Assembly (NCBI GenBank): GCA_963612845.1
Contig: CAVDWO010000002.1
Span: forward strand, 15,335 to 79,334
DNA length: 64,000 nt
From: Alistipes onderdonkii
GTDB lineage: Bacteria; Bacillota; Clostridia; Oscillospirales; Oscillospiraceae
Direction of reading: 5' to 3'
Under the pieces are notes generated by a model, which was not told the origin of the DNA, did not search any database, and saw only the letters and a list, made by a program, of their open reading frames with translations. Both the position numbers and the translations under genes were made by a program. Of this stretch, positions 29,915 to 44,214 are shown one piece after another (within the stretch, counting starts at the first letter, position 1; every line of letters begins with the position of its first letter).

Positions 29915-30109
29915 ATGGATATTGACCTCGTGTTCAAGATCGCGGCGGTGGGCATTATCGTCGCCGTGCTCAACCAGCTTCTCGTGCGCTCGGACCGCCC
30001 GGATCAGGCGATGCTCGTGAGCCTTGCGGGGCTGGTCACGACGATGATGCTGCTCGTGCGGGAGATCAGCTCACTGTTCGAGCTGGTCAAGAGCCTGTTC
30101 GGATTTTAG
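29915..30109 (+). CDS. spoIIIAC: Stage III sporulation protein AC
   Basis: MDIDLVFKIAAVGIIVAVLNQLL..LAGL. Confidence 0.95.
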   Translation: MDIDLVFKIAAVGIIVAVLNQLLVRSDRPDQAMLVSLAGLVTTMMLLVREISSLFELVKSLFGF

Positions 30110-30110
30110 C

Positions 30111-30497
30111 ATGGAGCTGCTGATCAGACTGACGGCGCTGAGCCTGTGCGTGTGCGCGATGGCGGCGCTGCTGAAGCGGCGCGACGAGACGCTCGCGCTC
30201 ATGCTGACGCTCTCGGCGGTGCTCGCGGGCTGCGCGCTGCTGCCGGACACGGTCTCGGAGCTGGCGGCGTTTTGCAGCCGCGCGGTCGAGCTGACGGGGC
30301 TTTCCGCGGCGCTCTTTCTGCCGCTGGCGAAGGTCGTGGCGATCGCGCTGGTCGCACGGTTTTCCTGCGCGCTGTGCGCCGACGCGGGACAGAGCGCGCT
30401 CTCCGCGCTGCTGGAGACGGCGGGGGCGTTCTGCGCCCTCGTGTGTGCGCTGCCGCTGCTGGAGGCGCTGCTCGCGCTGGCGGAGGGATTGCTGTGA
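30111..30497 (+). CDS. spoIIIAD: Stage III sporulation protein AD
   Basis: LCADAGQSAL motif; position. Confidence 0.9.
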   Translation: MELLIRLTALSLCVCAMAALLKRRDETLALMLTLSAVLAGCALLPDTVSELAAFCSRAVELTGLSAALFLPLAKVVAIALVARFSCALCADAGQSALSALLETAGAFCALVCALPLLEALLALAEGLL

Positions 30498-31561
30498 AAC
30501 GGCTGATACTGCTGCTCTGCGCGCTCGGCGCGCTCTGTCTGCCGGTGCGCGCCGCCGAGCTGCCGGAGGAGCTGGGCGGCGCGGTTCCGTCCGAGCTGCT
30601 CGACGGCGCGCGGGACGGGGACGACCTCGTGGCGCGCGGCGCGGACTATCTGTGCGGAATGTTGGGCGGCGCGCTGGAGGACGCGGTCCTCCCGGCTCTG
30701 CGCGCTGCCGCGGCGCTGATGCTGCTCTCGCTGCTGTGCGGACTGGTCGAGGGGACGGCGGTGGGCGCAGGCGAGCAGGGGACGCGCTGCGTCGCGCTCG
30801 CCGGTGTGCTGGGCGCGGCGGCGCTCTCGGCGGGCGATCTGAGCACGCTGATCGGACTCGGCGTGGAGACGGTGGACGAGCTTTTCACGGCGGCGAAGCT
30901 CCTTGTTCCGACACTTGCCGCAGCCATGGCGGGCGGCGGCTGCGTGAGCGCGGCGAGCGCGTGGCAGGTCGGGGCGCTGGCGATGTGCGAGATCTTCCTC
31001 GCGCTGCTGCGCGGCTGCTTCGTTCCGGCGCTCTACTGCATGATCGGCGCGGCGGCGGCGGGCGCGCTGCTGCCGGAGAGCAGGCTCACGCTGCTCTCCG
31101 AGGGAATCGGCAAGCTGCTCTCTTGGGCGCTGGGCGCGCTGCTGTTCGCCTTCACGGGCTTCCTGTCGCTGAGCGGACTGCTGGCAGGCTCCGCCGACCG
31201 CGTTTCCGTCCGCATCGGGAAGACGGTGATCTCCGGCGCAGTGCCGGTCGTGGGCGGGATCCTGTCGGACACGGCGGAGGCGCTCCTTGCCGGCGCGGAC
31301 GCGCTGCGCGGGACGATCGGGACGCTCGGCATCTTCACGGTGCTCGCGCTCTGCATGGCGCCGCTGCTGCGCCTTGCCGCGCAGTACGTGCTCTACCGCC
31401 TGACCGCGTTTTTCTGCGGCATGACGGGCAGCGAAGCGCTGCGAGGCTTCCTTGAGCAGCTTTCCTCCGCCTTCGCGCTGATGCTGGCGATGACGGCGGG
31501 CGGGGCGTTCGTGCTGCTCGCGGCGCTGATGATCGCGATAAGGATGGTGATGCCGGCATGA
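30494..31561 (+). CDS. spoIIIAE: Stage III sporulation protein AE
   Basis: Multi-TM, VPVVGGILSD motif; GTGA overlap with spoIIIAD. Confidence 0.9.
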   Translation: MKRLILLLCALGALCLPVRAAELPEELGGAVPSELLDGARDGDDLVARGADYLCGMLGGALEDAVLPALRAAAALMLLSLLCGLVEGTAVGAGEQGTRCVALAGVLGAAALSAGDLSTLIGLGVETVDELFTAAKLLVPTLAAAMAGGGCVSAASAWQVGALAMCEIFLALLRGCFVPALYCMIGAAAAGALLPESRLTLLSEGIGKLLSWALGALLFAFTGFLSLSGLLAGSADRVSVRIGKTVISGAVPVVGGILSDTAEALLAGADALRGTIGTLGIFTVLALCMAPLLRLAAQYVLYRLTAFFCGMTGSEALRGFLEQLSSAFALMLAMTAGGAFVLLAALMIAIRMVMPA

Positions 31562-32043
31562 TGCTCGTGCGCGCATGGCTGCTGGGGGTGATCGCCTGCG
31601 CGGTGCTCGTGAGCGCCGCGCAAAGCCTGACGGACGGCGGCGCGCTGCGGCGCGCGGTCCGCTTTGCGGGAGGGCTGCTGCTGATGCTCGCGATGCTGCG
31701 CCCGCTGCTTTCGGTGGAGTTTCCCGTTCGGGAGACGGCGCTCGACGGCTACCGCGCCGCCGTGGAGGAGCTGGAGCGCGAGCTTTCCGCGCAGCGGGAG
31801 GAATCGCTCTCGGGCGGCATAGCCGCCGCGACCGCCGCATATATTGAGGACAAAGCAGACGAGTTGGGCGTGAGCGTCCGCGCGTCCGTCACGGTGGAGG
31901 AGAAGGACGGCGTCCCGCTGCCGGCGGACGTGACGCTCTATGGGCAGCGGAGCGAGGCGCTCGCGGCGTACCTCGCGGACGAACTCGGGATCACGGAGGA
32001 GCATCAGACATGGATCGCATCAAAGGAGGACGGCTCCGGCTGA
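31558..32043 (+). CDS. spoIIIAF: Stage III sporulation protein AF
   Basis: VRFAGGLLL..LRPL; position. Confidence 0.8.
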   Translation: MMLVRAWLLGVIACAVLVSAAQSLTDGGALRRAVRFAGGLLLMLAMLRPLLSVEFPVRETALDGYRAAVEELERELSAQREESLSGGIAAATAAYIEDKADELGVSVRASVTVEEKDGVPLPADVTLYGQRSEALAAYLADELGITEEHQTWIASKEDGSG

Positions 32044-32543
32044 GCGCGGCGCTCGCCGCCGCCGGAAAATACCGCTACGTGCTGCTGAGCGCGGCGCTCG
32101 GAGCGTTTTTACTGCTGCTGCCGCACGGCGGCGGGGAGGAGAGCGCGCCGTCGGACACCGCTGCCGCCGACTTCGACCGCCTTGCCCTTCAGGAGGAGAT
32201 GGAGGATATCCTCTCCCGGCTCGACGGCGTCGGCAGGCTCTCGCTGATGCTCACCGTCGACGGCGGGGGAGAGTATGAGCTTGCGCGGGACGAGAGCGCG
32301 TCGAGCAGGAGCCGCGGCGGTGCGGACGAGGAGGAAACGACAAAGAGCGAGACCGTCGTGCTCGGCAGCGGCAGCGCCGCGGAGGTCGTCGTCACGCAGA
32401 GCCGCTACCCGCGCTTTGTCGGCGCGCTCGTCGTGTGCGAGGGCGGCGGGAGCGCCTCGGTGCGCTTTTCTGTGACGCAGGCGGTCGGCGCGCTCACGGG
32501 TCTGAGCGCAGACCGGATCACCGTCGTCAGGGGAACGCCATGA
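32010..32543 (+). CDS. spoIIIAG: Stage III sporulation protein AG
   Basis: ILSRLDGVG..MLT, PRFVGALVVCEGG, LSADRITV. Confidence 0.88.
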   Translation: MDRIKGGRLRLSAALAAAGKYRYVLLSAALGAFLLLLPHGGGEESAPSDTAAADFDRLALQEEMEDILSRLDGVGRLSLMLTVDGGGEYELARDESASSRSRGGADEEETTKSETVVLGSGSAAEVVVTQSRYPRFVGALVVCEGGGSASVRFSVTQAVGALTGLSADRITVVRGTP

Positions 32544-32590
32544 AGCTGGTCGTTTTTTATCATCAACAAAAAAGCAGGGAGGAAACAGGC

Positions 32591-33127
32591 ATGAAGAAGT
32601 TATGGAAGCGGAACGCGGTGGTCGCGGCGGTGCTGGTGCTCGTCTGCGCGGCGATCTATCTCAACGGGCGCTACGCCGATCAGGTCGAGCAGCCGGCGAA
32701 GGTGCTCGGGCAGGCGCAGCAGGTGGACACGGCGGACGCGGAGGCGGCGGAGGTATCCGGCGAGGCGGATGGCTCAGACTATTTCGCCTCGGCGCGCCTG
32801 ACGCGCAAGCAGGCGCGCGACAGCGCCCTGTCACTGCTCAAGGAGGCGAGCGAGAACGAGAGCGTGGACGAGCAGACGGCGAGCGAGGCGGCGAAAAGCA
32901 TCCAGACGCTCGCGTCCTACACGCTCAGTGAGGCGCAGATCGAGAACATGATCACCGCCAAGGGCTATGAGGACTGCGTGGTATTCCTCTCCGAGGACGG
33001 CGTGAGCGTCGTCGTATCGACGGGAGAGGACGGCTTGCAGACCGAGGACGTCGCCCGCATCACGGATATCGTCAAGCAGGAAACGGGCTTTGCCGCAGAG
33101 TGCATCAAGATCCTTGAGGTAAATTAG
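32591..33127 (+). CDS. spoIIIAH: Stage III sporulation protein AH
   Basis: DYFASARLTR, IENMITAKGYEDCVV. Confidence 0.9.
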   Translation: MKKLWKRNAVVAAVLVLVCAAIYLNGRYADQVEQPAKVLGQAQQVDTADAEAAEVSGEADGSDYFASARLTRKQARDSALSLLKEASENESVDEQTASEAAKSIQTLASYTLSEAQIENMITAKGYEDCVVFLSEDGVSVVVSTGEDGLQTEDVARITDIVKQETGFAAECIKILEVN

Positions 33128-33138
33128 CGATTTAGCTG

Positions 33139-33167
33139 TTGTATTTTTCAGAAAGTGATGGTAGAAT
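33139..33167 (+). promoter_or_regulatory. SigA promoter of asp23-nusB
   Basis: TTGTAT-17-TAGAAT with extended TG. Confidence 0.65.
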
Positions 33168-33210
33168 ACTCTTCGACATCGTGAGATTCAAGCAAGGAGA
33201 GGACACACGA

Positions 33211-33588
33211 ATGGCTGAGAATCGAGAGTATCTGACCCGCGGCGAGGAAAACGGCAGCATCAGCATCGCCGAGGACGTGGTCGCCGCCATCGTTGCCGAC
33301 GCGGTCGGCGAGATCGAGGGCGTCGGTCCCATGTGCCAGAACATGACCGAGCAGATCACCGAGCAGTTCACGGGGAAGAAAGCCCTGCGCGGCGTGCGCG
33401 CCGAGCTGCAGGACGGTGAGATCGTCGTGGACGTTTACCTGATGGTGCGCTACGGCTACGCGATCCCCGAGACCGCGCGCAAGGTGCAGGACGGCGTTTC
33501 CGCCGCGGTCGGCGGTATGACCGGCTACGGCGTGCGCGCCGTCAACGTTCACGTCGGCGGCATCAGCTTCAATCAAGAGAAAGAGTAA
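33211..33588 (+). CDS. Asp23/Gls24 family protein (YqhY-like)
   Basis: GSISIAEDVVAAI, YGYAIP..VQ, VNVHVGGI; precedes nusB. Confidence 0.9.
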   Translation: MAENREYLTRGEENGSISIAEDVVAAIVADAVGEIEGVGPMCQNMTEQITEQFTGKKALRGVRAELQDGEIVVDVYLMVRYGYAIPETARKVQDGVSAAVGGMTGYGVRAVNVHVGGISFNQEKE

Positions 33589-33601
33589 GGACGCAACACG
33601 A

Positions 33602-34057
33602 ATGATTCGCAATACGGCGCGAGAGATCGCGGTTCATCTGGCATATGAGCTGAGCTTTACCGACAAAACGCCGCAGCAGCTGCTCGACGAGCGGCTGAAG
33701 CGGGAATACTTTGAATCCCTTGGGGAGGAGGACGCCGTTTACCAGAAGGCGCCCGGCGCGGCGCAGGCGGAGTATATCCGTTCGATCGTCGCGGGCGTTG
33801 CCGGCCACGCGCCGGAGCTGGACGGCTACATCGCCAAATACGCCAAGGGCTGGAGCTTCGAGCGTATCCCGCTCGTCGCCTCGGCGATCATGCGCGTGGC
33901 GATGTACGAATCGCTCTACCGGGACGATATCCCCACGAGCGTCGCCATCAACGAAGCGGTGGAGATCGCCAAGAAGTACGAGACGCCGGAGACGGTGAAG
34001 TTCATCAACGGCATTCTCGGCAGCTTCGCGCGCGGCGAGCTGAACGCGGAGAACTGA
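33602..34057 (+). CDS. nusB: Transcription antitermination factor NusB
   Basis: RNTARE, WSFERI, INEAVEIAKKY, FINGILG. Confidence 0.96.
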   Translation: MIRNTAREIAVHLAYELSFTDKTPQQLLDERLKREYFESLGEEDAVYQKAPGAAQAEYIRSIVAGVAGHAPELDGYIAKYAKGWSFERIPLVASAIMRVAMYESLYRDDIPTSVAINEAVEIAKKYETPETVKFINGILGSFARGELNAEN

Positions 34058-34062
34058 CAAGG

Positions 34063-34098
34063 AAGCAGAGTACCGCCTTTCGCGGCGCTCTGCTTTTC
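34063..34098 (+). terminator. Probable terminator after nusB
   Basis: AAGCAGAG..CCGC/GCGG..CTCTGCTTTT stem. Confidence 0.6.
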
Positions 34099-34146
34099 TG
34101 CAATAGCTGAAAAGGGAAAATACTTGACAGAGAGGGGCGGCACGGC

Positions 34147-35382
34147 ATGGAACAGCCGCAGATGATCTTCAGCGTGTCGGAGGCGAACAACTTCATCAAG
34201 GCGCTGCTCGACGCGGTGCCGCAGCTCCAGAATATCTGCGTGCGCGGTGAGATCTCGAACTATAAGCGCTACCCCTCGGGGCACCATTATTTCACGCTCA
34301 AGGACGAGGGCGGCGCGCTGCGCTGCGTGATGTTCCGCGGTATGGCGGCGGGGCTGCGCTTCCGGCCGGAGAACGGTATGAAGGTCATCGCCTTCGGGCG
34401 CATCGGCGTGTTCCCGCGCGACGGCGCGTACCAGCTCTACTGCTCCGCCCTGAGCGCGGAGGGCGCGGGCGACCTGCACGCCGCCTTCGAGCAGCTCAAG
34501 GCGAAGCTGGACAAAGAGGGGCTGTTCGACTCCGCGCACAAAAAGCCGCTGCCGCGCTGCCCGCGGCGCATCGCGCTCATCACCTCGCCCGCCGGCGCGG
34601 CGGTGCATGATATGCTGCGTATCCTGAACGCGCGCTGGCCGCTGTGCAAGGTCGTGCTCCTGCCCGTGCGCGTGCAGGGGGCGGAGGCGCCGCCGGAGAT
34701 CGCGGGCGCGCTGCGCTACGCGAATAAATGGCAGGTCGCCGACCTCATCATCACGGGGCGCGGCGGCGGGTCGATCGAGGACCTCTGGGCGTTCAACGAC
34801 GAGCGCGTGGCGCGTGCCATCTATGAATCGGAGATCCCCGTCATCTCCGCAGTGGGGCACGAGCCGGACGTGACGATCGCGGACTTTGCCGCCGACGTGC
34901 GCGCCGCGACGCCATCGAATGCGGCGGAGCTTGCCGTGCCGGACCGGCAGGAGGTGAAGCGGCGGCTCGACGTGCTGCGCGAGCGCATCGCGCGGAGCGA
35001 GCGCAAGCGGCTTGAGGAGCAGCGGGAGCGGTTCGACCGGCTCGCGCGCAGCCGCGCTTTGCGGGACCCCATGGCGTTTATCGACGATAAGCGCCAGCTG
35101 CTCGACTATACGCGGAAGGATCTCGCGTCCCTCGCGCAGGATCAGATGGCGCAGCGGGAGCAGCGCTTCACGGCGCTCGCGGCGAAGCTCGACGCGCTCA
35201 GCCCGCTCAAGGTGCTCGGACGCGGCTACGCGGTGGCGCGGAATGAAAAGGGGCAGATCCTGCGCGCGGCGCGGGAGGCTAAGCCCGGCGAAACGATCGA
35301 GGTATTGCTCGGGCAGGGGAGCCTTGCGTGTACGGTGGAGCGATGCAGCATGGGAGGAAACGATGATGGCAAAAACATTTGA
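34147..35382 (+). CDS. xseA: Exodeoxyribonuclease VII large subunit
   Basis: GEISN..SGHHYFTLKD, RGGGSIEDLWAFN, SAVGHEPD, TPSNAAE. Confidence 0.97.
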   Translation: MEQPQMIFSVSEANNFIKALLDAVPQLQNICVRGEISNYKRYPSGHHYFTLKDEGGALRCVMFRGMAAGLRFRPENGMKVIAFGRIGVFPRDGAYQLYCSALSAEGAGDLHAAFEQLKAKLDKEGLFDSAHKKPLPRCPRRIALITSPAGAAVHDMLRILNARWPLCKVVLLPVRVQGAEAPPEIAGALRYANKWQVADLIITGRGGGSIEDLWAFNDERVARAIYESEIPVISAVGHEPDVTIADFAADVRAATPSNAAELAVPDRQEVKRRLDVLRERIARSERKRLEEQRERFDRLARSRALRDPMAFIDDKRQLLDYTRKDLASLAQDQMAQREQRFTALAAKLDALSPLKVLGRGYAVARNEKGQILRAAREAKPGETIEVLLGQGSLACTVERCSMGGNDDGKNI

Positions 35383-35590
35383 AGACAATATCGCGCGGCT
35401 CGAGGAGATCGTGGCGGCGCTGGAAAAGGGCGACGCAAAGCTCGCCGAGTCCCTCAAGCTCTTTGAGGAGGGCACGAAGCTCGTGACGGACTGCGGCGCG
35501 ATGCTCGACAAGGCGGAGCAGAAGGTCGTGAAGCTCTCCCGCGGCGCGGACGGCGCGCCGGTCGAGAGCGCGTTTGAAGCGGAGGAGTGA
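35363..35590 (+). CDS. xseB: Exodeoxyribonuclease VII small subunit
   Basis: FEDNIARLEEIVAALE..SLKLFEEG. Confidence 0.95.
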   Translation: MMAKTFEDNIARLEEIVAALEKGDAKLAESLKLFEEGTKLVTDCGAMLDKAEQKVVKLSRGADGAPVESAFEAEE

Positions 35591-35593
35591 GCG

Positions 35594-36481
35594 ATGGACG
35601 AGAAGCTGTTTTCCGCGCGCATGGCGGAATACAAGGCGATGGTGGAGGGCTTTCTTTCCTCCTGCCTTGCGGATACGCGGCGCGCGAGCTACCACGAGCT
35701 GACCGATTCGATGCGCTACAGCCTGAACGCGGGCGGCAAGCGCCTGCGCCCGATCCTCGCGCTGGAATTCTGCCGCGTCTGCGGCGGCAGCGTCGAAGCG
35801 GCGCTGGGCGTAGCGTGCGGCGTCGAGATGCTGCACACCTATTCCCTGATCCACGACGATCTGCCCGTGATGGACGACGACGATCTGCGCCGCGGCAAGC
35901 CGTCGAACCACAAGGTCTTCGGCGAGTGTACGGCGACGCTCGCGGGAGACGCGCTGCAGGCGCTCGCCTTTGAAACGGTGCTGGGCGCGCCGCTGCCGCC
36001 GGAGCGCGCGCTGCGCTGCGCGCAGATCTTGGCGACCGCCGCCGGACACGAGGGCATCTGCGGCGGTCAGCAGCTCGACCTTGAATGGGAGGGCAGGGCG
36101 CTGCGCGCGCCGGAGCTGGAGGAGATCTACCGCCGCAAGACGGGCGCGCTGCTCCGCGCGGCGTGTCTGATGGGCGCTGCCGCAGCCGGCGGCACGGCGG
36201 AGCAGGAGCGCGCGGCGGCAGCATACGGCGAGCATTTCGGCTATGCCTTCCAGCTGCGCGACGACGTGCTCGACGTGATCGGCGACGAGAAGACGTTCGG
36301 CAAGCCCATCGGCTCGGACCGCGAGGAGGGGAAGACGACGGGCGTCGACCTCTTCGGCATCGACGGCTGCCGCGAGCGGATCGCCGAAAGCTCGCGCGCG
36401 GCGGAGGACGCGCTCGCAGGGCTTCCCGACGCGGATTTCCTGCGGCATCTCGTCCATGTGCTCGAAGCGCGGGATAAATGA
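35594..36481 (+). CDS. ispA: Farnesyl diphosphate synthase
   Basis: GGKRLRP, HDDLPVMDDDDLRRG, FQLRDD. Confidence 0.95.
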   Translation: MDEKLFSARMAEYKAMVEGFLSSCLADTRRASYHELTDSMRYSLNAGGKRLRPILALEFCRVCGGSVEAALGVACGVEMLHTYSLIHDDLPVMDDDDLRRGKPSNHKVFGECTATLAGDALQALAFETVLGAPLPPERALRCAQILATAAGHEGICGGQQLDLEWEGRALRAPELEEIYRRKTGALLRAACLMGAAAAGGTAEQERAAAAYGEHFGYAFQLRDDVLDVIGDEKTFGKPIGSDREEGKTTGVDLFGIDGCRERIAESSRAAEDALAGLPDADFLRHLVHVLEARDK

Positions 36482-36544
36482 GCGGTAAATTTCGTGCATT
36501 TGCAAAAAAAGACGCGCAGGAGTGAAAAAATATGAATTTTCCGG

Positions 36545-36573
36545 TTGACAAGCGGGAGCGATGGTGCTACCAT
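36545..36573 (+). promoter_or_regulatory. SigA promoter of met leader/metQNI
   Basis: TTGACA-17-TACCAT with extended TG. Confidence 0.8.
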
Positions 36574-36626
36574 ACGCACAGCGCGGGAGCCGTGAGCGCC
36601 CGCAGCTGAGTTTCAGAAAGGAAACA

Positions 36627-36743
36627 ATGGGCATGAAGAACTTCGCCGTCAACTCCATGATGATGTCCGAGATGCGCATGATGTCTGTCATGTGCATGCT
36701 TCGCCATGGAGAAAACGGTCATTTCCTTTCAGAAACTGTCTGA
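36627..36743 (+). CDS. Met-rich leader peptide (38 aa, 10 Met), putative attenuator peptide
   Basis: SD GAAAGGA; MGMKNFAVNSMMMSEMRMMSVMCMLRHGENGHFLSETV; upstream of methionine transporter and a terminator. Confidence 0.85.
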   Translation: MGMKNFAVNSMMMSEMRMMSVMCMLRHGENGHFLSETV

Positions 36744-36761
36744 TATACCGGCGCACGAACG

Positions 36762-36800
36762 ACAGCGGAAGGTCAATGACCTCCCGCTGTTTTTTATTTT
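36762..36800 (+). terminator. Attenuator terminator in metQ leader
   Basis: ACAGCGGAAGGTC-AAT-GACCTCCCGCTGT then TTTTTATTTT; competing antiterminator strand at 36717-36740. Confidence 0.9.
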
Positions 36801-36952
36801 CCGATGTGAAAGGAGCAGATACCATGCGCAGCTTTCAACTGTACAGGGACGACCGAATGTGTCCGCAGGACACTGCGGGATAGGAATAAGAATGCAGCAT
36901 CATCGCTGAGCGATCCAAATAAATAAAATCATTTCATAAGGAGAACAAAACA

Positions 36953-37849
36953 ATGAAGAAGAATTCTGTCAAGCTCACCGCGCTCGTACTGGCGCTCGTG
37001 CTCACCGCCGCGCTCGCCCTGACCGGCTGCGGCTCTAAGGATACCGCCGCTGACGACTCCGGCGACAGCGCCCCCGTCATTCAGATCGCCGTCCCCAACG
37101 ACACCACCAACGAAGCGCGCGCGCTGCTGCTGCTTGAAGCCAACGGCATCATCAAGCTCAAGGACGGCGCTGGCATCACCGCCACCAAGAACGACATCGC
37201 CGAGAATCCGTACAACGTTGAGATCGTTGAGACCGAAGCCGCGGCGATCCCCAACGTCCTGCAGGACGTTGACTATGCCGTCATCAACTCCAACTACGCC
37301 ATCAACGCGGGGCTGAACCCTGTCGAGGATTCGCTCGCCATCGAAGGCTCCTCCTCGGCTTACGCCAATATCCTTGCCGTCAAGGAGGGCAACGAGACCT
37401 CCCCCAAGACGCTCGCGCTGATCGCAGCGCTTGAGAGCCAGCAGGTCGCCGACTTCATCGAAGAGAAGTATGCTGGCGCCGTTGTGAGCACCGTGGAGAA
37501 CCCGACCGACGGCTACGACGCCACCGTTGACTACGCCGCGCTCGCCGGCGAGACCATCTCCGTCGCCGCGTCCCCGACGCCGCACGCCGAGATCCTTGAG
37601 GTCGCCAAGGAGCTCCTCGCCGCCAAGGACATCACCCTTGATATCCAGACCTACAACGACTACGTCGTGCCCAACACCGTGGTCGAGGACGGCACCGCGG
37701 ACGCCAACTACTTCCAGCACACCCCGTACCTTGACGACTTCAACGCCGAAAAGGGCACGCACATCGTCTCCGTCGCCGCGATCCACGTTGAACCCATGGG
37801 TCTCTACGGCGGCAAGCAGACCACGCTCGACGCGCTGAGCGCGCAGTAA
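36953..37849 (+). CDS. metQ: Methionine ABC transporter lipoprotein MetQ/NlpA, circularly permuted
   Basis: Lipobox LTGC; IAVPNDTTNEARAL, AVINSNYA, ASPTPHAEIL, DANYFQH, HVEPMGLY motifs in swapped order. Confidence 0.93.
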   Translation: MKKNSVKLTALVLALVLTAALALTGCGSKDTAADDSGDSAPVIQIAVPNDTTNEARALLLLEANGIIKLKDGAGITATKNDIAENPYNVEIVETEAAAIPNVLQDVDYAVINSNYAINAGLNPVEDSLAIEGSSSAYANILAVKEGNETSPKTLALIAALESQQVADFIEEKYAGAVVSTVENPTDGYDATVDYAALAGETISVAASPTPHAEILEVAKELLAAKDITLDIQTYNDYVVPNTVVEDGTADANYFQHTPYLDDFNAEKGTHIVSVAAIHVEPMGLYGGKQTTLDALSAQ

Positions 37850-37871
37850 CAGCAGAAAGGAGGGAGCGTCC

Positions 37872-38879
37872 TTGATCGAACTGAAGCACCTTTGCAAGAC
37901 CTTTGAGACCGCCGGCGGACGGGTAGACGCGCTCAAGGACGTCTCCCTCACCATACCGGACGGGGACGTTTACGGCATCATCGGCATGAGCGGCGCGGGC
38001 AAATCCACGCTTGTGCGCTGCATCAATATGCTCGAGCGCCCGACCTCCGGCGAGGTCATCGTGAACGGGCAGCGGCTCGACACGATGAGCGCCTCGCAGC
38101 TGCGCGCGGCGCGGCGCGAGATCACAATGATCTTCCAGCGCTTCAACCTGCTGATGCAGCGCAGCTGCCTCGACAACGTGTGCTTCCCGATGGAGCTGGC
38201 GGGCGTGAAAAAGAGTGAGGCGGTCAAGCGCGCGCAGGAGCTGCTCGAGACCGTGGGGCTGCCCGACAAGGCGAAGGCATATCCCGCGCAGCTCTCCGGC
38301 GGGCAGCAGCAGCGTGTCGCCATCGCCCGCGCGCTCGCAACGGAGCCAAAGGTGCTGCTGTGCGACGAGGCGACGAGCGCGCTCGATCCCAAGACGACGC
38401 GCCAGATCCTCGAACTGATCGGCGACATCAACAAGAAGCTCGGCATCACGGTCGTCATCATCACGCACCAGATGAGCGTCGTGCGCGAGGTTTGCAGCCA
38501 CGTCGCCATTCTTGACGACGGCGAGGTGGTCGAGGAGGGGCTCGTTTCCGCGGTATTCTCCGCGCCGAAGTCCGCCGCCGCGCGGCACCTTGTATTCCCC
38601 CGCGGCGCGGATATCGACGTGTCCGACCCGCAGCATGAGCGCCGCATCCGCCTGATCTTCCGCAGCGCGAAGACGACCTCCGTGCCCCTCGTGGCGCGCC
38701 TTGCCACGGAGGAGGGCGTGAACGCGAACGTCATTTCCGCCAACACGCAGAAGCTCTCCGAGGAGGTCTACGGCAGTATGCTGCTGGGCGTGCCCAACGC
38801 GCAGTTCGAGCGCGCGATGGCGTTCCTCAAGGGCATCGAAAATCTTCAGGTAGAGGAGGCGAGCGTCAATGTACAGTAA
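37872..38879 (+). CDS. metN: Methionine ABC transporter ATPase
   Basis: GMSGAGKST, IFQRFNLL, LCDEATSALDP, C-terminal NIL-like domain; TTG start. Confidence 0.95.
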   Translation: MIELKHLCKTFETAGGRVDALKDVSLTIPDGDVYGIIGMSGAGKSTLVRCINMLERPTSGEVIVNGQRLDTMSASQLRAARREITMIFQRFNLLMQRSCLDNVCFPMELAGVKKSEAVKRAQELLETVGLPDKAKAYPAQLSGGQQQRVAIARALATEPKVLLCDEATSALDPKTTRQILELIGDINKKLGITVVIITHQMSVVREVCSHVAILDDGEVVEEGLVSAVFSAPKSAAARHLVFPRGADIDVSDPQHERRIRLIFRSAKTTSVPLVARLATEEGVNANVISANTQKLSEEVYGSMLLGVPNAQFERAMAFLKGIENLQVEEASVNVQ

Positions 38880-39573
38880 GATGTTTTCGCCGGAGTCTGT
38901 TTCCCAGCTGGTCGTCCTTTTGCAGACGCAGTTCCCGCTGGCGATCTGGGAGACGTTTTACGTCACCGTGCTCTCCACGCTTTTGGCGGTGGTGCTCGGT
39001 CTGCCGCTCGGCGTATTGCTGGTGGCGGGGGAGAAGGACGGCGTGCTGCCGCTTCCCAAGGCGCTGATGAGTGTGCTGAACGTCATCATCAACCTGCTGC
39101 GCTCCGTCCCGTTCCTGATCCTGATGGTCATGGTCTTCCCGCTCTCACGCCTGATCATCGGCACGACCGTCGGCACGAAGGCGACGATCGTCCCGCTCGT
39201 CGTGGCGGCGTTCCCGTTCGTGGCGCGCCTTGTTGAGAGCAGCCTGCGCGAGGTCGACCCCAACATCATCGAAGCCGCGCAGAGCATGGGCGCGACGCCG
39301 CTTCAGATCGTCTGTAAGGTGATGATCCCCGAGAGCGTCCCCTCGCTTTTGCAGAACTTCACCATCGCGCTGACGACCATTCTCGGCTACTCCGCGATGA
39401 GCGGCGTTATCGGCGGCGGCGGACTCGGCAAGATCGCCATCGACTACGGCTACTACCGCTACAAATATCTGGTGATGTTCGCCGCGACGCTCCTGCTGGT
39501 CCTGCTCGTGCAGGGCTTCCAGTCGCTCGGCACCTACCTTTCCACAAAATGTGACAAGCGGCTCAAAAAATAA
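38869..39573 (+). CDS. metI: Methionine ABC transporter permease
   Basis: LRSVPFLIL, PFVARLVE, YSAMSG..GGGGLG. Confidence 0.95.
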   Translation: MYSKMFSPESVSQLVVLLQTQFPLAIWETFYVTVLSTLLAVVLGLPLGVLLVAGEKDGVLPLPKALMSVLNVIINLLRSVPFLILMVMVFPLSRLIIGTTVGTKATIVPLVVAAFPFVARLVESSLREVDPNIIEAAQSMGATPLQIVCKVMIPESVPSLLQNFTIALTTILGYSAMSGVIGGGGLGKIAIDYGYYRYKYLVMFAATLLLVLLVQGFQSLGTYLSTKCDKRLKK

Positions 39574-39591
39574 ACCGGCTTCCGCTCCCGC

Positions 39592-39627
39592 AGCGCCCTG
39601 ACCGTTCGACGGCCGGGGCGCTTTTTT
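39592..39627 (+). terminator. Terminator after metI
   Basis: AGCGCCCTGACCGT/ACGGCCGGGGCGCT plus T run. Confidence 0.8.
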
Positions 39628-39703
39628 GGTCAGATTGTGCAGATTGCCCGAAAAAACACAGGGGATTTTTGCAGGAGAAATGAATCAAAAATTGCAAAAT
39701 GAC

Positions 39704-39732
39704 TTGTAAAAGAGGGGCGCGGCTGATATAAT
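39704..39732 (+). promoter_or_regulatory. SigA promoter
   Basis: TTGTAA-17-TATAAT with extended TG. Confidence 0.75.
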
Positions 39733-39789
39733 AGACCCATTATCAGATGCGGCTCGCGCCGATCTGCATTATGTTATCGGAGAAATTGC

Positions 39790-40449
39790 GTGAACAGCTT
39801 CCATGAACTTTTCCTGTCGCTGGACTGGGCTGCGCTTGCCGGCGCGCTCCTGCGCGTGCTCGGCGTCTTTTTATGCCTGACGGTGCATGAGACCTGCCAC
39901 GGTCTTGCGGCTTACGCCCTCGGCGACCCGACGGCGAAGCGCGCCCACCGTCTGAGCCTGAATCCCCTGCACCATATCGACTGGTTCGGCTTAGCCGCGA
40001 TGCTGCTCGTCGGCTTCGGCTGGGCGAAGCCCGTGCCGGTGGACATGAGCTATTTCAAAAAGCCGCGGCAGGGCATGGCGCTCACGGCGCTGGCGGGACC
40101 GGTGTCGAATTTTGTGCTGGCGGCGCTTGCGATGCTGCTCGCGCGGGCGATCTACCGGCAGTACGGCGTCGGGTGGGACTATCTGTTCGACTTCCTGCTG
40201 ATGACGGCGTACATGAGCATCGGTCTCGGGCTGTTCAACCTGATCCCGATCTCGCCGCTCGACGGGTCGAAGGTGCTTTTCGCCTTTTTGCCGGACGCGG
40301 CGTATGAAACGCTCATGCGCTATGAAAAATACGGTATGGTCGTGCTGCTCGCGCTCGTTTGGCTCGGCGTGGGGGACAATCTGCTCGGCGCCGCTATCTA
40401 CCGCGTATATGAATTTTTCCTGCGAGGGATCTTCCGCGGTCTGCTTTGA
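39790..40449 (+). CDS. Site-2 protease family (M50) protein
   Basis: HETCH, GDPTAK, AGPVSN, FNLIPISPLDG. Confidence 0.92.
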   Translation: MNSFHELFLSLDWAALAGALLRVLGVFLCLTVHETCHGLAAYALGDPTAKRAHRLSLNPLHHIDWFGLAAMLLVGFGWAKPVPVDMSYFKKPRQGMALTALAGPVSNFVLAALAMLLARAIYRQYGVGWDYLFDFLLMTAYMSIGLGLFNLIPISPLDGSKVLFAFLPDAAYETLMRYEKYGMVVLLALVWLGVGDNLLGAAIYRVYEFFLRGIFRGLL

Positions 40450-40484
40450 GCGCGCGGAGCTTTCCCGGAACGGAGACAGGCTGA

Positions 40485-41270
40485 ATGGACAATCCCGTTT
40501 TCAAGCTGGAGAGCGTCGTCCACGAGCGCAGCGCCGAGGCGCTGCAGGACTTTGAAGGTCCGCTCGATCTGATCCTCTTCCTGCTGTCGAAAAATAAAAT
40601 AGAGATCCAGGATATCCCCATCGCGCTGATCCTCGACCAGTACCTCGCGTATCTCGAGCAGCGCAAGCAGCTCGACCTCGAGGTGGCGAGCGAGTTCATC
40701 ACGATGGCGGCGCACCTGATGTATATCAAAACGCGGATGCTGCTCTCGCTTGAGGACGAGCAGGCGCAGAGCGAGATGGATGAGCTGATCGCCTCGCTCA
40801 AGGAGCGCCAGCAGAAGGACACCTATCTGCGCGTCAAAATGCTGACCGAGACGCTCGGTCCGATGGGCGAGTTCGGCCGCAGCGTGATGACGCGCGCGCC
40901 GGAGCCGATGCAGCGCGGCAAGATCTACGAATACGACCACGAGAAGGCGGAGCTCGTGCTCGCCATGCAGGCGATGCTCGACCGCGGCGAGCGGGTTTCC
41001 GCTCCGCCGGGCGCGGCGCTGAGCGAGATCGTGCGGCGCGAGCCGTACCCCGTCAAGGGCAAGGCGGAGGAGATCCTGCGCCGGCTGAAGGAGTTCGGCA
41101 TGACGCGCTTTCAGCTGCTTTTCCGCGGCAGCCGCAGCCGCAGCGAGATCGTAGCGACCTTTATCGCCGTGCTGGAGCTGTGCCGCGAGAAGGTCATCCG
41201 CCTCGCCGGGTCCGACACGGACTGCACGGTCGAGTGCGGGGAGAGCGGCGGCAAAACCATTGATTTGTGA
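40485..41270 (+). CDS. scpA: Segregation/condensation protein A
   Basis: FEGPLDLIL, IKTRMLL, TFIAVLEL. Confidence 0.95.
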   Translation: MDNPVFKLESVVHERSAEALQDFEGPLDLILFLLSKNKIEIQDIPIALILDQYLAYLEQRKQLDLEVASEFITMAAHLMYIKTRMLLSLEDEQAQSEMDELIASLKERQQKDTYLRVKMLTETLGPMGEFGRSVMTRAPEPMQRGKIYEYDHEKAELVLAMQAMLDRGERVSAPPGAALSEIVRREPYPVKGKAEEILRRLKEFGMTRFQLLFRGSRSRSEIVATFIAVLELCREKVIRLAGSDTDCTVECGESGGKTIDL

Positions 41271-41279
41271 GGAGATAGC

Positions 41280-41894
41280 ATGGCTTTGGAATCATTGGAC
41301 CTGCGCGAGGTCGAGGCGGCGATCGAGGGGATCCTGTTTGCCAGCGGCGAGCCGCTGGGCATCGACCGCATCTGCCTTGCGCTGGAGCTTGACCGCCCCA
41401 CGGCGGAGCAGGTGCTGCAAAAGCTCGGCGATCATTACGCCTACGAGCGCCGCGGGATCCGTCTCGTGCGCATGGAGGACAGCTACCAGCTCTGCTCCGC
41501 GCCGGACTATGCCGAGGTGATCCGCAAGGCGTTCGAGATCCGCAAGACAGCGAAGCTCTCCCAGCCCGCGCTGGAGGTGCTGACGGTCGTCGCCTACTAC
41601 CAGCCCACGACGCGCGCCTACGTCGATCAGGTGCGCGGGGTGGACAGCTCGTACACCATGGGGCTGCTGCTGGAGCGCGGGCTGATCGAGGAATGCGGGC
41701 GCCTGCAGGTGCCCGGCAGACCACATCTCTACCGCACGACGAAGAAATTCCTGCGGGATTTCCACTTAGGCTCGCTTGAGGAGTTGCCCGAGATGCCCGG
41801 TCTTGAGGCGGACGGTCAGCTCCGCATGACCGAGGACGGCTCGATCCTCGACCCCAACACGCTCATGCCGCAGGACGCGGACGGCGCAAAATGA
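41280..41894 (+). CDS. scpB: Segregation/condensation protein B
   Basis: IEGILFA, LSQPALEVL..AYYQP, PGRPHLYRTT. Confidence 0.95.
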   Translation: MALESLDLREVEAAIEGILFASGEPLGIDRICLALELDRPTAEQVLQKLGDHYAYERRGIRLVRMEDSYQLCSAPDYAEVIRKAFEIRKTAKLSQPALEVLTVVAYYQPTTRAYVDQVRGVDSSYTMGLLLERGLIEECGRLQVPGRPHLYRTTKKFLRDFHLGSLEELPEMPGLEADGQLRMTEDGSILDPNTLMPQDADGAK

Positions 41895-41936
41895 CCGGCA
41901 GATTGCAGATACAGATACGGACAGGGAGGTGATCGC

Positions 41937-42629
41937 TTGACGGCGCTGAAGGTGATCGGGATCATACTGCTGATCCTGCTGCTCATCGGACTGCTGCGCG
42001 TGGGCGCGGAGGTGCGCTTCGGAGAAGCGCTCGTCGTGAAGCTGCGCATCGGTCCGTTTCGCAGGACCATCGTCCCGATGGGCGAAAAGCCGCCCAAAAA
42101 GCGGAAAGAAAAGGAAGTGCCGGACGAGCCGGCGGCGGAGAAGCCGAAGAAAAAGCGTTCCCTGCCGAAGCCGACGCTCCGCGAGCTTACCGACCTTATC
42201 TCCACAGCATTTTCCGCGCTGGGCGCGATGCTGCGCGCGACCTGCCGCCGCCTTCGCATCGACCCGCTGGAGGTGTCCGTCACCTTCGGCGGCGCGGATC
42301 CGGCGGAGATCGCGCAGAAGTACGGCTACGCCTGCGCCGCGATGTGGGCGCTGATGCCGCGGGCGGAGACGCTGTTCCGTATCCCGCACCCATCGCTCCA
42401 CCTGCGAATGGACTATCAGGCGGCGGAAACGCGCGCCGAGGGGTCGCTGGGGCTGAGCGCGCGCGTCGGGCAGCTTTTGGTCATCGCGCTCGCGCTTGCC
42501 GTTCCGCTGCTGAAGTGGTTCCTGCGCTTTAAGAAGGCGCACCGAGACGACGCGCCGAGGAGCGCGGAGCCGCCCGCGCAGGCGGGAGCGGCGGAGCAAA
42601 CGGAGAAAACAGAAAAACTGTCAGCATAA
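41937..42629 (+). CDS. YtfI/DUF2953-like membrane protein
   Basis: N-terminal TM, DPAEIAQKYG motif, upstream of ytfJ. Confidence 0.75.
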   Translation: MTALKVIGIILLILLLIGLLRVGAEVRFGEALVVKLRIGPFRRTIVPMGEKPPKKRKEKEVPDEPAAEKPKKKRSLPKPTLRELTDLISTAFSALGAMLRATCRRLRIDPLEVSVTFGGADPAEIAQKYGYACAAMWALMPRAETLFRIPHPSLHLRMDYQAAETRAEGSLGLSARVGQLLVIALALAVPLLKWFLRFKKAHRDDAPRSAEPPAQAGAAEQTEKTEKLSA

Positions 42630-42654
42630 GCAGAAAAGAGAAAGGAAGAACACC

Positions 42655-43050
42655 ATGGAAAATCTTGAGAAGAAAGCCCCTCTGAACGATCTGATGGACA
42701 CGGCGATGGGAAAGATCCGCGAAATGGTCGATTCCAACACCATCATCGGCGAGCCGATCACCACGCCCGACGGCGTGACCGTGATCCCCGTCTCCCGCGT
42801 CAGCTTCGGCTTCGGCTCCGGCGGCGGCGACTACGGCGCGGCGAAGACGAACTTCGGCGGCGGCGCGGGCGCGGGCGTCCGGATCGACCCTGTCGCGTTC
42901 CTGATCATCAAGGACGGCGTGACGCGCATCATGCCGGTCGCCGTACCCGCTGTGACGACGGTCGACCGCGTGCTTGACCTCGTTCCCGAGGTGATGGACC
43001 GCGTGGAAAATTTCGTCAACAAGAAGAAGGAAGAGAAAGAAATCTACTGA
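42655..43050 (+). CDS. gerW: Sporulation protein YtfJ/GerW
   Basis: DSNTIIGEPI, IPVSRVSFGFGSGG, GGGAGAG..PVAFL. Confidence 0.92.
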   Translation: MENLEKKAPLNDLMDTAMGKIREMVDSNTIIGEPITTPDGVTVIPVSRVSFGFGSGGGDYGAAKTNFGGGAGAGVRIDPVAFLIIKDGVTRIMPVAVPAVTTVDRVLDLVPEVMDRVENFVNKKKEEKEIY

Positions 43051-43092
43051 TCCGGGGCATAATAGGGACATTCTTGACAAAGGAGTGATCCC

Positions 43093-44214
43093 ATGCCGCG
43101 TTTCCCACGCCGAATCGCCGCTGCTTTCCTTGCGGCAGCTTGCCTGACAGGGAATATCACTTGTCAGGCTGACGCGCCGCAGACCTCTGCCGCCGCCTTC
43201 GTCCTGATGGATGCGGACAGCGGTCGGGTGCTGGCTTCGCAGAACGAAACGCAGGAGCGCGGCATCGCCAGCACGACGAAGATCATGACCTGCCTTGTGG
43301 CGCTGGAGCACAGCGAGCTCACGGACCGGGTCACGGTCAGGCGCGAGCATCTGCGCGAGGGCTCGTCGATGTACCTTGCCGAGGGCGAAACGCTGACAAT
43401 GGAGGAGCTGCTCTACGGGCTGCTCCTGCCCTCGGGGAACGATGCAGCCGAGTGCATCGCCGCTTTCTGCGGCGGGGGCGACAGTGCGCGCTTTGTCGCG
43501 TGGATGAACGAAAAGGCCGCCGCGCTCGGCATGACGCGCACAGAGTTCCGCAACCCGAGCGGGCTCGACGAGCAGGGGCACCATTCCTGCGCCCTCGACA
43601 TGGCGCGCCTTGCAGCGGCCGCCATGGAGGAGCCGACCTTCGCGCGCATCGCTTCGACGCGCACGGCGTCCGTCGGCACGAGGACGATGAGCAACCACAA
43701 TAAGCTGCTCGGCTCATTTTCCGGCTGCATCGGTCTCAAGACGGGCTATACGGACGACGCGGGGCGCACGCTGGTCACCTGCGCGGAGCGCGGCGGACTG
43801 CGGCTGATCGCCGTCACGCTGCACGACGGCAACGACTGGGCGGATCATGCCGCGCTCTATGAATACGGTTTTTCCGCTTACCGCTCCGCCGCCGGTGCGA
43901 AGCAGGGCGAGCGGTACGGCAGCGTACTCGCGGGAGGGAAGGATATCCCCGTCGTCGCGGCGGAGAGCTTCTGCTATCCCGTCGCCGCGGGCGAGGAGTT
44001 GACGGTGCGCGCCGAGCTTCCGCAGACCGCACCCGTCCCGCTGCGGACGGGGCAGGCGGTCGGGACGCTCGTGATCCTCTGCAACGGAGCGGAGGTCGGG
44101 CGCGTGGCGCTTCTCAGCGGCGGCACGGCGCTGCCGCAGACGGTGCCGGAAACGGCGGAAACAACGAAAAAGACAACGCTCGCGGAAAGGCTGTGGAAGC
44201 TGCTTTCCGCGTAA
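43093..44214 (+). CDS. D-alanyl-D-alanine carboxypeptidase (S11)
   Basis: ASTTK (SxxK), SGN, KTG motifs. Confidence 0.92.
   Translation: MPRFPRRIAAAFLAAACLTGNITCQADAPQTSAAAFVLMDADSGRVLASQNETQERGIASTTKIMTCLVALEHSELTDRVTVRREHLREGSSMYLAEGETLTMEELLYGLLLPSGNDAAECIAAFCGGGDSARFVAWMNEKAAALGMTRTEFRNPSGLDEQGHHSCALDMARLAAAAMEEPTFARIASTRTASVGTRTMSNHNKLLGSFSGCIGLKTGYTDDAGRTLVTCAERGGLRLIAVTLHDGNDWADHAALYEYGFSAYRSAAGAKQGERYGSVLAGGKDIPVVAAESFCYPVAAGEELTVRAELPQTAPVPLRTGQAVGTLVILCNGAEVGRVALLSGGTALPQTVPETAETTKKTTLAERLWKLLSA

Follow-up and report, generated by a model that had tools for sequence, protein, structure and literature searches.

The locus lies in a 64,000-nucleotide stretch of DNA, the whole of which is called the window here, and consists of a putative methionine (Met) uptake operon, metQ-metN-metI, preceded by a promoter, a short Met-rich leader ORF and an intrinsic terminator (Table 1). 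Transcription would start near 36580. The Shine-Dalgarno (SD) sequence of the leader, GAAAGGA (36616-36622), lies within segment 1, and the leader ORF holds eight internal Met codons (36657-36698) and one Cys codon. The terminator was overlooked by a simple terminator scan and was found by folding.

Table 1. Features of the Met leader and of the operon that it precedes (positions in the window)
Feature	Position	Strand	Basis or remark
Sigma-70-type promoter, TTGACA-17-TACCAT with extended TG	36545..36573	+	both boxes kept in genus homologs
5' hairpin of leader RNA	36580..36607	+	predicted; sequence not conserved
Segment 1, 5' arm of long-range helix	36609..36624	+	fold, complementarity, family covariation
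Leader ORF, ATG 36633 to TGA 36743, 36 codons	36633..36743	+	genus comparison
Inner hairpin from Met-codon tract, 36646-36659 with 36705-36718 plus apical stem	36646..36718	+	predicted
Segment 2, antiterminator strand; contains 3' arm 36722-36737, ends in leader stop codon	36717..36742	+	near-invariant in genus
Segment 3, terminator 5' strand and loop; pairs with segment 2 in antiterminator	36761..36781	+	folding
Intrinsic terminator, about -19.7 kcal/mol, T tract	36761..36800	+	folding
Second short ORF, SD AAGGAG 36810-36815, 19 codons	36824..36883	+	conserved CGA-ATG (Arg-Met) at 36854-36859
metQ-like lipoprotein, halves swapped relative to MetQ profile	36953..37849	+	best profile match, under its curated cut-off
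metN-like ABC ATPase	37872..38879	+	best match ABC_MetN, under its curated cut-off
metI-like permease	38869..39573	+	best match MetI, under its curated cut-off

Firmicutes usually control Met genes through T-boxes or SAM riboswitches. An Rfam search of positions 30000-44000 at E ≤ 1 returned nothing relevant, just two unrelated weak matches, and 16 homologous loci gave no Rfam match to a T-box, a SAM riboswitch or any other family. The genome has nine T-box matches and one SAM-I match, the latter before a metK-like ORF (gene name read from the translation), indicating that the usual tools of Met control exist in this genome and are unused at this locus. Two of the T-box matches (G000 C20:5017-5273 and C2:694-902) precede lipoprotein-like ORFs rather than synthetases. 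The leader peptide matched no Pfam family, and no other Met-rich leader with an SD and a downstream T run was found in this genome. The metQ-like product is apparently circularly permuted, with residues 43-178 matching profile positions 131-268; MetQ matches in the family are mostly in two pieces of swapped order, and are colinear at 64% or more in 31 of 301 genomes, including this one.

An earlier note on this DNA had described a near-perfect repeat between the ribosome-binding site (RBS) of the leader and a segment downstream, and this inverted repeat is real. The arms (36609-36624 and 36722-36737) lie 97 nt apart and can pair at 15 of their 16 positions, the exception being an A.A mismatch (36615/36731). 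When the 221-nt leader was dinucleotide-shuffled 500 times, no shuffle gave a 15/16 match (best 14), and no other RBS window of the genome (n=654) matched the same strand as well (best 14, in two windows); when scored by loose duplex energy, the leader RBS ranked just 30th-53rd of the 654. The RBS helix was present in both the MFE and the centroid folds of 36580-36800 (z -4.8; 1 of 200 shuffles equally stable). Its 3' arm sits within segment 2, and as isolated duplexes the antiterminator and the RBS helix were valued at -20.4 and -16.4 kcal/mol, respectively. Both arms contain the self-complementary 9-mer TTTCAGAAA (36609-36626; 36727-36735), and a local GUUUC/GAAAC hairpin is possible in the RBS once segment 2 is covered.

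We collected related leaders from several sources. From the 29 best non-self metQ loci of 301 family genomes we obtained 24 with a Met-rich leader, with no leader pattern used, while a pattern scan of a genome collection gave at least 120 stretches, and from the first 80 of these we retained 75. The total sample was 115 Clostridia leaders, or 66 clusters at 70% identity; a held-out set of 40 unused loci yielded 35 leaders, 18 of them less than 70% identical to all others. We dropped L029 (terminator-only match), L071 and L080 (judged false positives), L155 (weak SD), loci in which no Met leader was found (L033, L056, L057, L058, L060, L069, L129, L135) and loci with no leader (L146, L167, L175, L177), and assigned the start of L042 by hand. 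Alignment A1 was made without 11 atypical clusters, so that the fixed-column, core-fit and segment-2 offset counts refer to 55 of the 66 clusters. By our own permissive routine, run with no null, a terminator-like hairpin and T tract were found in 115 of 115 leaders, and the hairpin lay 13-50 nt past the stop codon in the 66 cluster representatives. Judged by motif labels, three of which were checked with Pfam (two above cut-off), 110 of the 111 called downstream ORFs had the look of Met transport or synthesis (78 metQ, 25 metN, 5 metY, 1 metE, 1 metA and 1 unclassified). The leader thus also occurs beyond the transporter, before metY-like, metE-like and metA-like genes (L064, L079, L082, L090, L140, L123, L125). 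Named records with leaders that cluster with that of the window were labelled Oscillospiraceae or Clostridiales; two leaders close to the Oscillospiraceae ones came from records labelled Phascolarctobacterium and Alloprevotella (L111, L133), reflecting either mis-binned contigs or transfer.

The geometry of the leader was regular across the family. The representatives carried 5-11 internal Met codons; the first was codon 7-10 in 55/66, and the last Met-x-Met ended at codon 19-24 in 57/66. The segment-2 core followed 26-27 nt past the last Met-x-Met in 50/55, and the stop codon lay 1-33 nt past the core in 55/55. With the ribosome footprint assumed to span -15 to +13 from the A site, this geometry would be consistent with a segment 2 left exposed by a stalled ribosome and covered by one that completes the leader. 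Met codons are mostly separated by TGC, which is the Cys codon commonly used in this genome, and in 19 pattern-free leaders Cys was encoded by TGC in 30/30 cases between Met codons vs 29/37 elsewhere (p 0.007). A TGC between Met codons makes the Met tract self-complementary; the leader Cys may have a structural role, a sensing role or both. At the locus the inner hairpin of the Met tract is predicted to bring segments 1 and 2 together.

The RBS site and the antiterminator site shared at least 4 nt of segment 2 in 61/66 clusters, which bears out the proposal that the downstream segment is also the antiterminator strand and that three helices compete. Full-length equilibrium folding with ribosome masks gave the terminator in nearly every state, suggesting that the choice between terminator and antiterminator must be kinetic. 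We modelled the switch on transcripts cut just past the terminator loop and counted the antiterminator at five or more pairs. It formed in 17/66 free RNAs, in 54/66 with an initiation complex alone and in 3/66 with a ribosome at the stop codon. Placing a ribosome on the first Met codon gave 36/66, rising to 62/66 when the RBS was covered too; the corresponding numbers for a ribosome at the last Met codon were 34/66 and 51/66. In the RNA of the window the modelled antiterminator appeared only when the RBS was covered (12.4-12.6 bp vs 0-2), and under a single stalled footprint 10.6-16.6 bp of the RBS helix remained. Steric hindrance to a helix that closes around a ribosome is not part of the model, and in the cell a single stalled ribosome may therefore be enough.

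The comparison reveals a terminator behind a Met-rich leader, and in segment 2 a single strand able to pair with either the RBS or the terminator 5' strand and loop. We consider it likely that the long-range helix, segment 1:2, serves as the anti-antiterminator in a Met leader-peptide transcription attenuator, with the leader's own RBS as its 5' strand; segment 1 thus appears, from the sequences compared, to be the RBS and not the sensing codons. With no ribosome on the leader, the Met tract would fold on itself, the RBS would pair with segment 2 and the terminator would form, leaving the released leader closed to re-translation. Folding supports the RBS helix and terminator as the probable default in the ribosome-free state, as the earlier note had held, in the manner of super-attenuation in the available portions of two reports (PMC1183508, PMC5864092). 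When Met is plentiful, a ribosome would reach the stop codon and cover segment 2, resulting in the terminator. When charged Met-tRNA is scarce, a ribosome would dwell in the Met tract with segment 2 just 3' of its footprint, and either this stalled ribosome, sitting in the loop of the RBS helix, or a second one occupying the RBS, or the two together, would keep that helix from forming. The antiterminator could then form and metQ-metN-metI would be transcribed. Without ribosomes held at the beginning of the leader gene, the operon is probably silent.

The helix might instead act only after the decision, which the position of the ribosome on segment 2 alone would make, by stopping re-translation of a terminated, Met-costly leader and perhaps by protecting the RNA. 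There is a precedent in the B. subtilis tlrB (yxjB) leader, where, according to the part of the report available, a hairpin sequesters the tlrB SD, blocks leader-peptide translation and represses further rounds of it (PMC6851288). The persistence of the RBS helix in the full-length fold and the number of Met codons spent per leader also agree with a late role, and by analogy with tlrB it is plausible that the helix blocks re-initiation on terminated leaders, as had been suggested. An exclusively late role is nevertheless unlikely, given that the 3' strand of the helix coincides with the antiterminator in nearly all clusters and that covering the RBS shifts modelled antiterminator formation as described above. 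Moreover, this strand is transcribed before segment 3, so the helix would form in time to compete.

The anti-antiterminator reading further depends on whether the pairing is more than a by-product. Segment 2 complements the purine-rich strand of the terminator and any purine-rich SD resembles that strand, so part of the complementarity is forced, and the near-perfect match at the locus could have come about by chance or by templated copying of the palindromic 9-mer, which is identical in both arms. DNA searches of the genus gave matches in 12/60 relatives and in 16/48 genus genomes, one of them a mere terminator look-alike. ATG 36633 was kept in 16/16 genus leaders; ATG 36627, considered as a conserved start, was rejected, being an in-frame extra ATG that is lineage-specific (5/16 genus leaders). 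On the 5' side the GAAAGG core alone was kept, and segment 2 was nearly invariant. The clade of the window lengthens the helix upstream of the SD, and other genus members lengthen it into the spacer. In the cluster of the window the 16-nt match was 14-15/16 in just 4/18 members and 10-12/16 in the other 14. We thus rejected the exact 16-bp helix of the earlier note as a conserved unit, its upstream extension being lineage-specific, and the genus data by themselves would be compatible with a by-product.

We calculated the duplex energy of every RBS window (-22 to +3) paired with every segment-2 region across the 66 clusters. Cognate pairs averaged -17.8 kcal/mol vs -13.7 for non-cognate pairs, a difference reached in none of 20,000 permutations (z -12.5). 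Taken by itself, the spacer that separates the SD from the start codon, which is free of any need for complementarity, matched its own segment 2 (z -11.4), and the terminator strand did so at z -7.1. The upstream window (z -0.1) and the RBS paired with the region past the terminator (z -1.7) served as controls; a third control, the first codons (+4 to +28), was not null (z -3.6). The 18 held-out leaders gave z -6.0 for the RBS, -4.1 for the spacer, -4.8 for the terminator strand and -1.3 for the control. As the clusters are related, all these z values overstate certainty. Around a fitted 5-bp core, the six flanking pairs contained 2.27 Watson-Crick pairs vs 1.66 when permuted (0/3,000; 55 clusters), with most of the gain in the first two. 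The sequences and registers of the pairing vary between lineages and the register slides, as seen in the RBS/segment 2 matches GGAAGA/UCUUCC (L049), GGAGGACA/UGUCCUCC (L050), GGAGAGCA/UGCUCUCC (L053), AGAAAACAUG/CAUGUUUUCU (L054), GCGAACCG/CGGUUCGC (L137) and GAAAAUCAGU/ACUGAUUUUC (L139); in some leaders the helix is weak (L108, -5.6; L079, -8.4).

Other contrasts were less clear. In fixed columns the best antiparallel diagonal reached z 3.2 vs 2.7 for the parallel control (55 clusters), a comparison with no clear outcome because the register slides. Among disjoint sister pairs the cognate pairing was better in 17/25 untied pairs (p 0.054) and in 15/21 (p 0.039), both borderline; the spacer alone was not significant there and neither was the antiterminator itself, which points to low power in this contrast. 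The covariation in homologous leaders that the earlier note had named as a check is borne out by cognate pairing, including that of the held-out leaders, and left borderline or near the control by the sister pairs and fixed columns. These weak tests, the scarcity of the 16-bp form and the loose-duplex rank speak for a by-product; the cognate match of the spacer and the differing sequences and registers speak against it and make it improbable. Across the leaders compared, the RBS helix apparently keeps its function better than its sequence. That the helix is mainly a pause signal or timer, making the polymerase wait past segment 2 until a ribosome arrives, in a phylum whose polymerase runs ahead of its ribosomes, accords with the pause site after the 1:2 hairpin of classical attenuators (PMC1183508), the classing of Bacillota as runaway transcribers (PMC12407708) and the pausing that tlrB requires, all from the accessible parts of these sources, and is very improbable because a formed helix hides the RBS and later waiting would not help the first ribosome to load.

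The Met leader resembles E. coli trpL in its amino-acid-rich ORF, three competing helices, stop codon over segment 2 and predicted default termination. Beside trpL, the classical leader-peptide attenuators include hisL, thrL and pheL. Older work from the Yanofsky laboratory reportedly showed that a distal segment pairs with the trpL RBS, shutting off leader synthesis. By computation, the leader has a codon-enriched, SD-led ORF, a terminator, a 2:3 antiterminator and a 1:2 protector helix. The regulatory codons form segment 1 in trpL, whereas here the RBS and spacer, upstream of the start codon, make up segment 1 and the Met tract falls within the loop. The amino acid presumably sensed is Met, which, unlike that of trpL, is also needed by initiation. 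According to two papers, classical attenuators combine a short ORF enriched in codons for the sensed amino acid with three competing helices and a stop codon over segment 2, and terminate by default when the leader is untranslated (PMC1183508, PMC4615214). In the experimentally tested Listeria Rli60 leader (ilv-leu), RBS and ATG mutants are super-attenuators (PMC5864092), and His leaders have been predicted in Eubacteriales, namely the Bacillus cereus group, Peptostreptococcaceae and Erysipelotrichales (PMC9413887, PMC2965389); these leaders share phylum and logic with the Met leader and serve other amino acids, and the excerpts of these papers describe no RBS:antiterminator helix. As the tlrB hairpin blocks leader translation, initiation must precede folding there; tlrB senses tylosin through an arrest motif and, unlike for the Met leader, the available text identifies no antiterminator. 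Firmicute Met T-boxes and SAM-I riboswitches control Met genes by termination and antitermination (PMC3771891, in part); the Met leader differs in matching no Rfam family and would sense through translation of a conserved ORF.

Our literature search found no paper on a Met leader attenuator; the supplements of PMC2965389, PMC9413887 and PMC4833913, which lay outside its scope, could list some. The literature on leader-RBS shut-off and super-attenuation likewise did not describe the RBS:antiterminator helix of a Met leader. The attenuator logic, Firmicute leaders for other amino acids and the tlrB translation block are known; a Met leader with its RBS as segment 1 is probably new. Met is an awkward choice for control by a leader peptide, being required for initiation as well. 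The locus may offer a compact, testable system for ribosome-coupled attenuation in a phylum with runaway transcription, and bears on how abundant gut Oscillospiraceae control Met uptake. It also raises the questions of ribosome queues as a signal and of initiator vs elongator Met-tRNA pools in starvation.

The earlier note had raised fMet-tRNA as a possible second sensing layer, a suggestion that we did not find supported. Less fMet-tRNA would lead to less initiation, more helix and more termination; taken simply, this would oppose induction by Met shortage, unless the RBS were protected by a 30S complex waiting on it. On initiator vs elongator tRNA charging, our search returned just the S. 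aureus Met T-box paper, available in part (PMC3771891). We tentatively propose, from the folding models, that this gut Clostridia attenuator reads RBS occupancy. Read-through would then require two occupied sites, the Met tract by a ribosome held there and the RBS by another ribosome or an initiation complex in waiting; the switch would count queueing and not one stall, and the Arg(CGA)-Met uORF past the terminator might be a further translation-coupled layer. Under such queueing, the Met tract would start at the point at which the leading ribosome has left the start codon free and end about one footprint later.

The SD-led Arg-Met uORF was found in 31/66 clusters (including L034, L035, L043-L046, L050-L052 and L064). 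Its Arg codon was the rare CGA in 31/31, with no codon assumed; CGA makes up 200 of the 9,765 Arg codons in this genome. The codon after Arg-Met begins with TG in 26/31, and a subgroup keeps upstream residues (F-R-x-x-R-M). From its sequence the second uORF looks like an arrest or sensor peptide. Upstream of metQ, L033 is without the Met attenuator and keeps the Arg-Met uORF; it also has what we take to be TATAG-type boxes adjoining a LysR-like gene. In L058, likewise upstream of metQ, an ORF of the Arg-Met type is itself the leader before the terminator, and its spacer pairs at 8/8 positions with a segment inside the leader.
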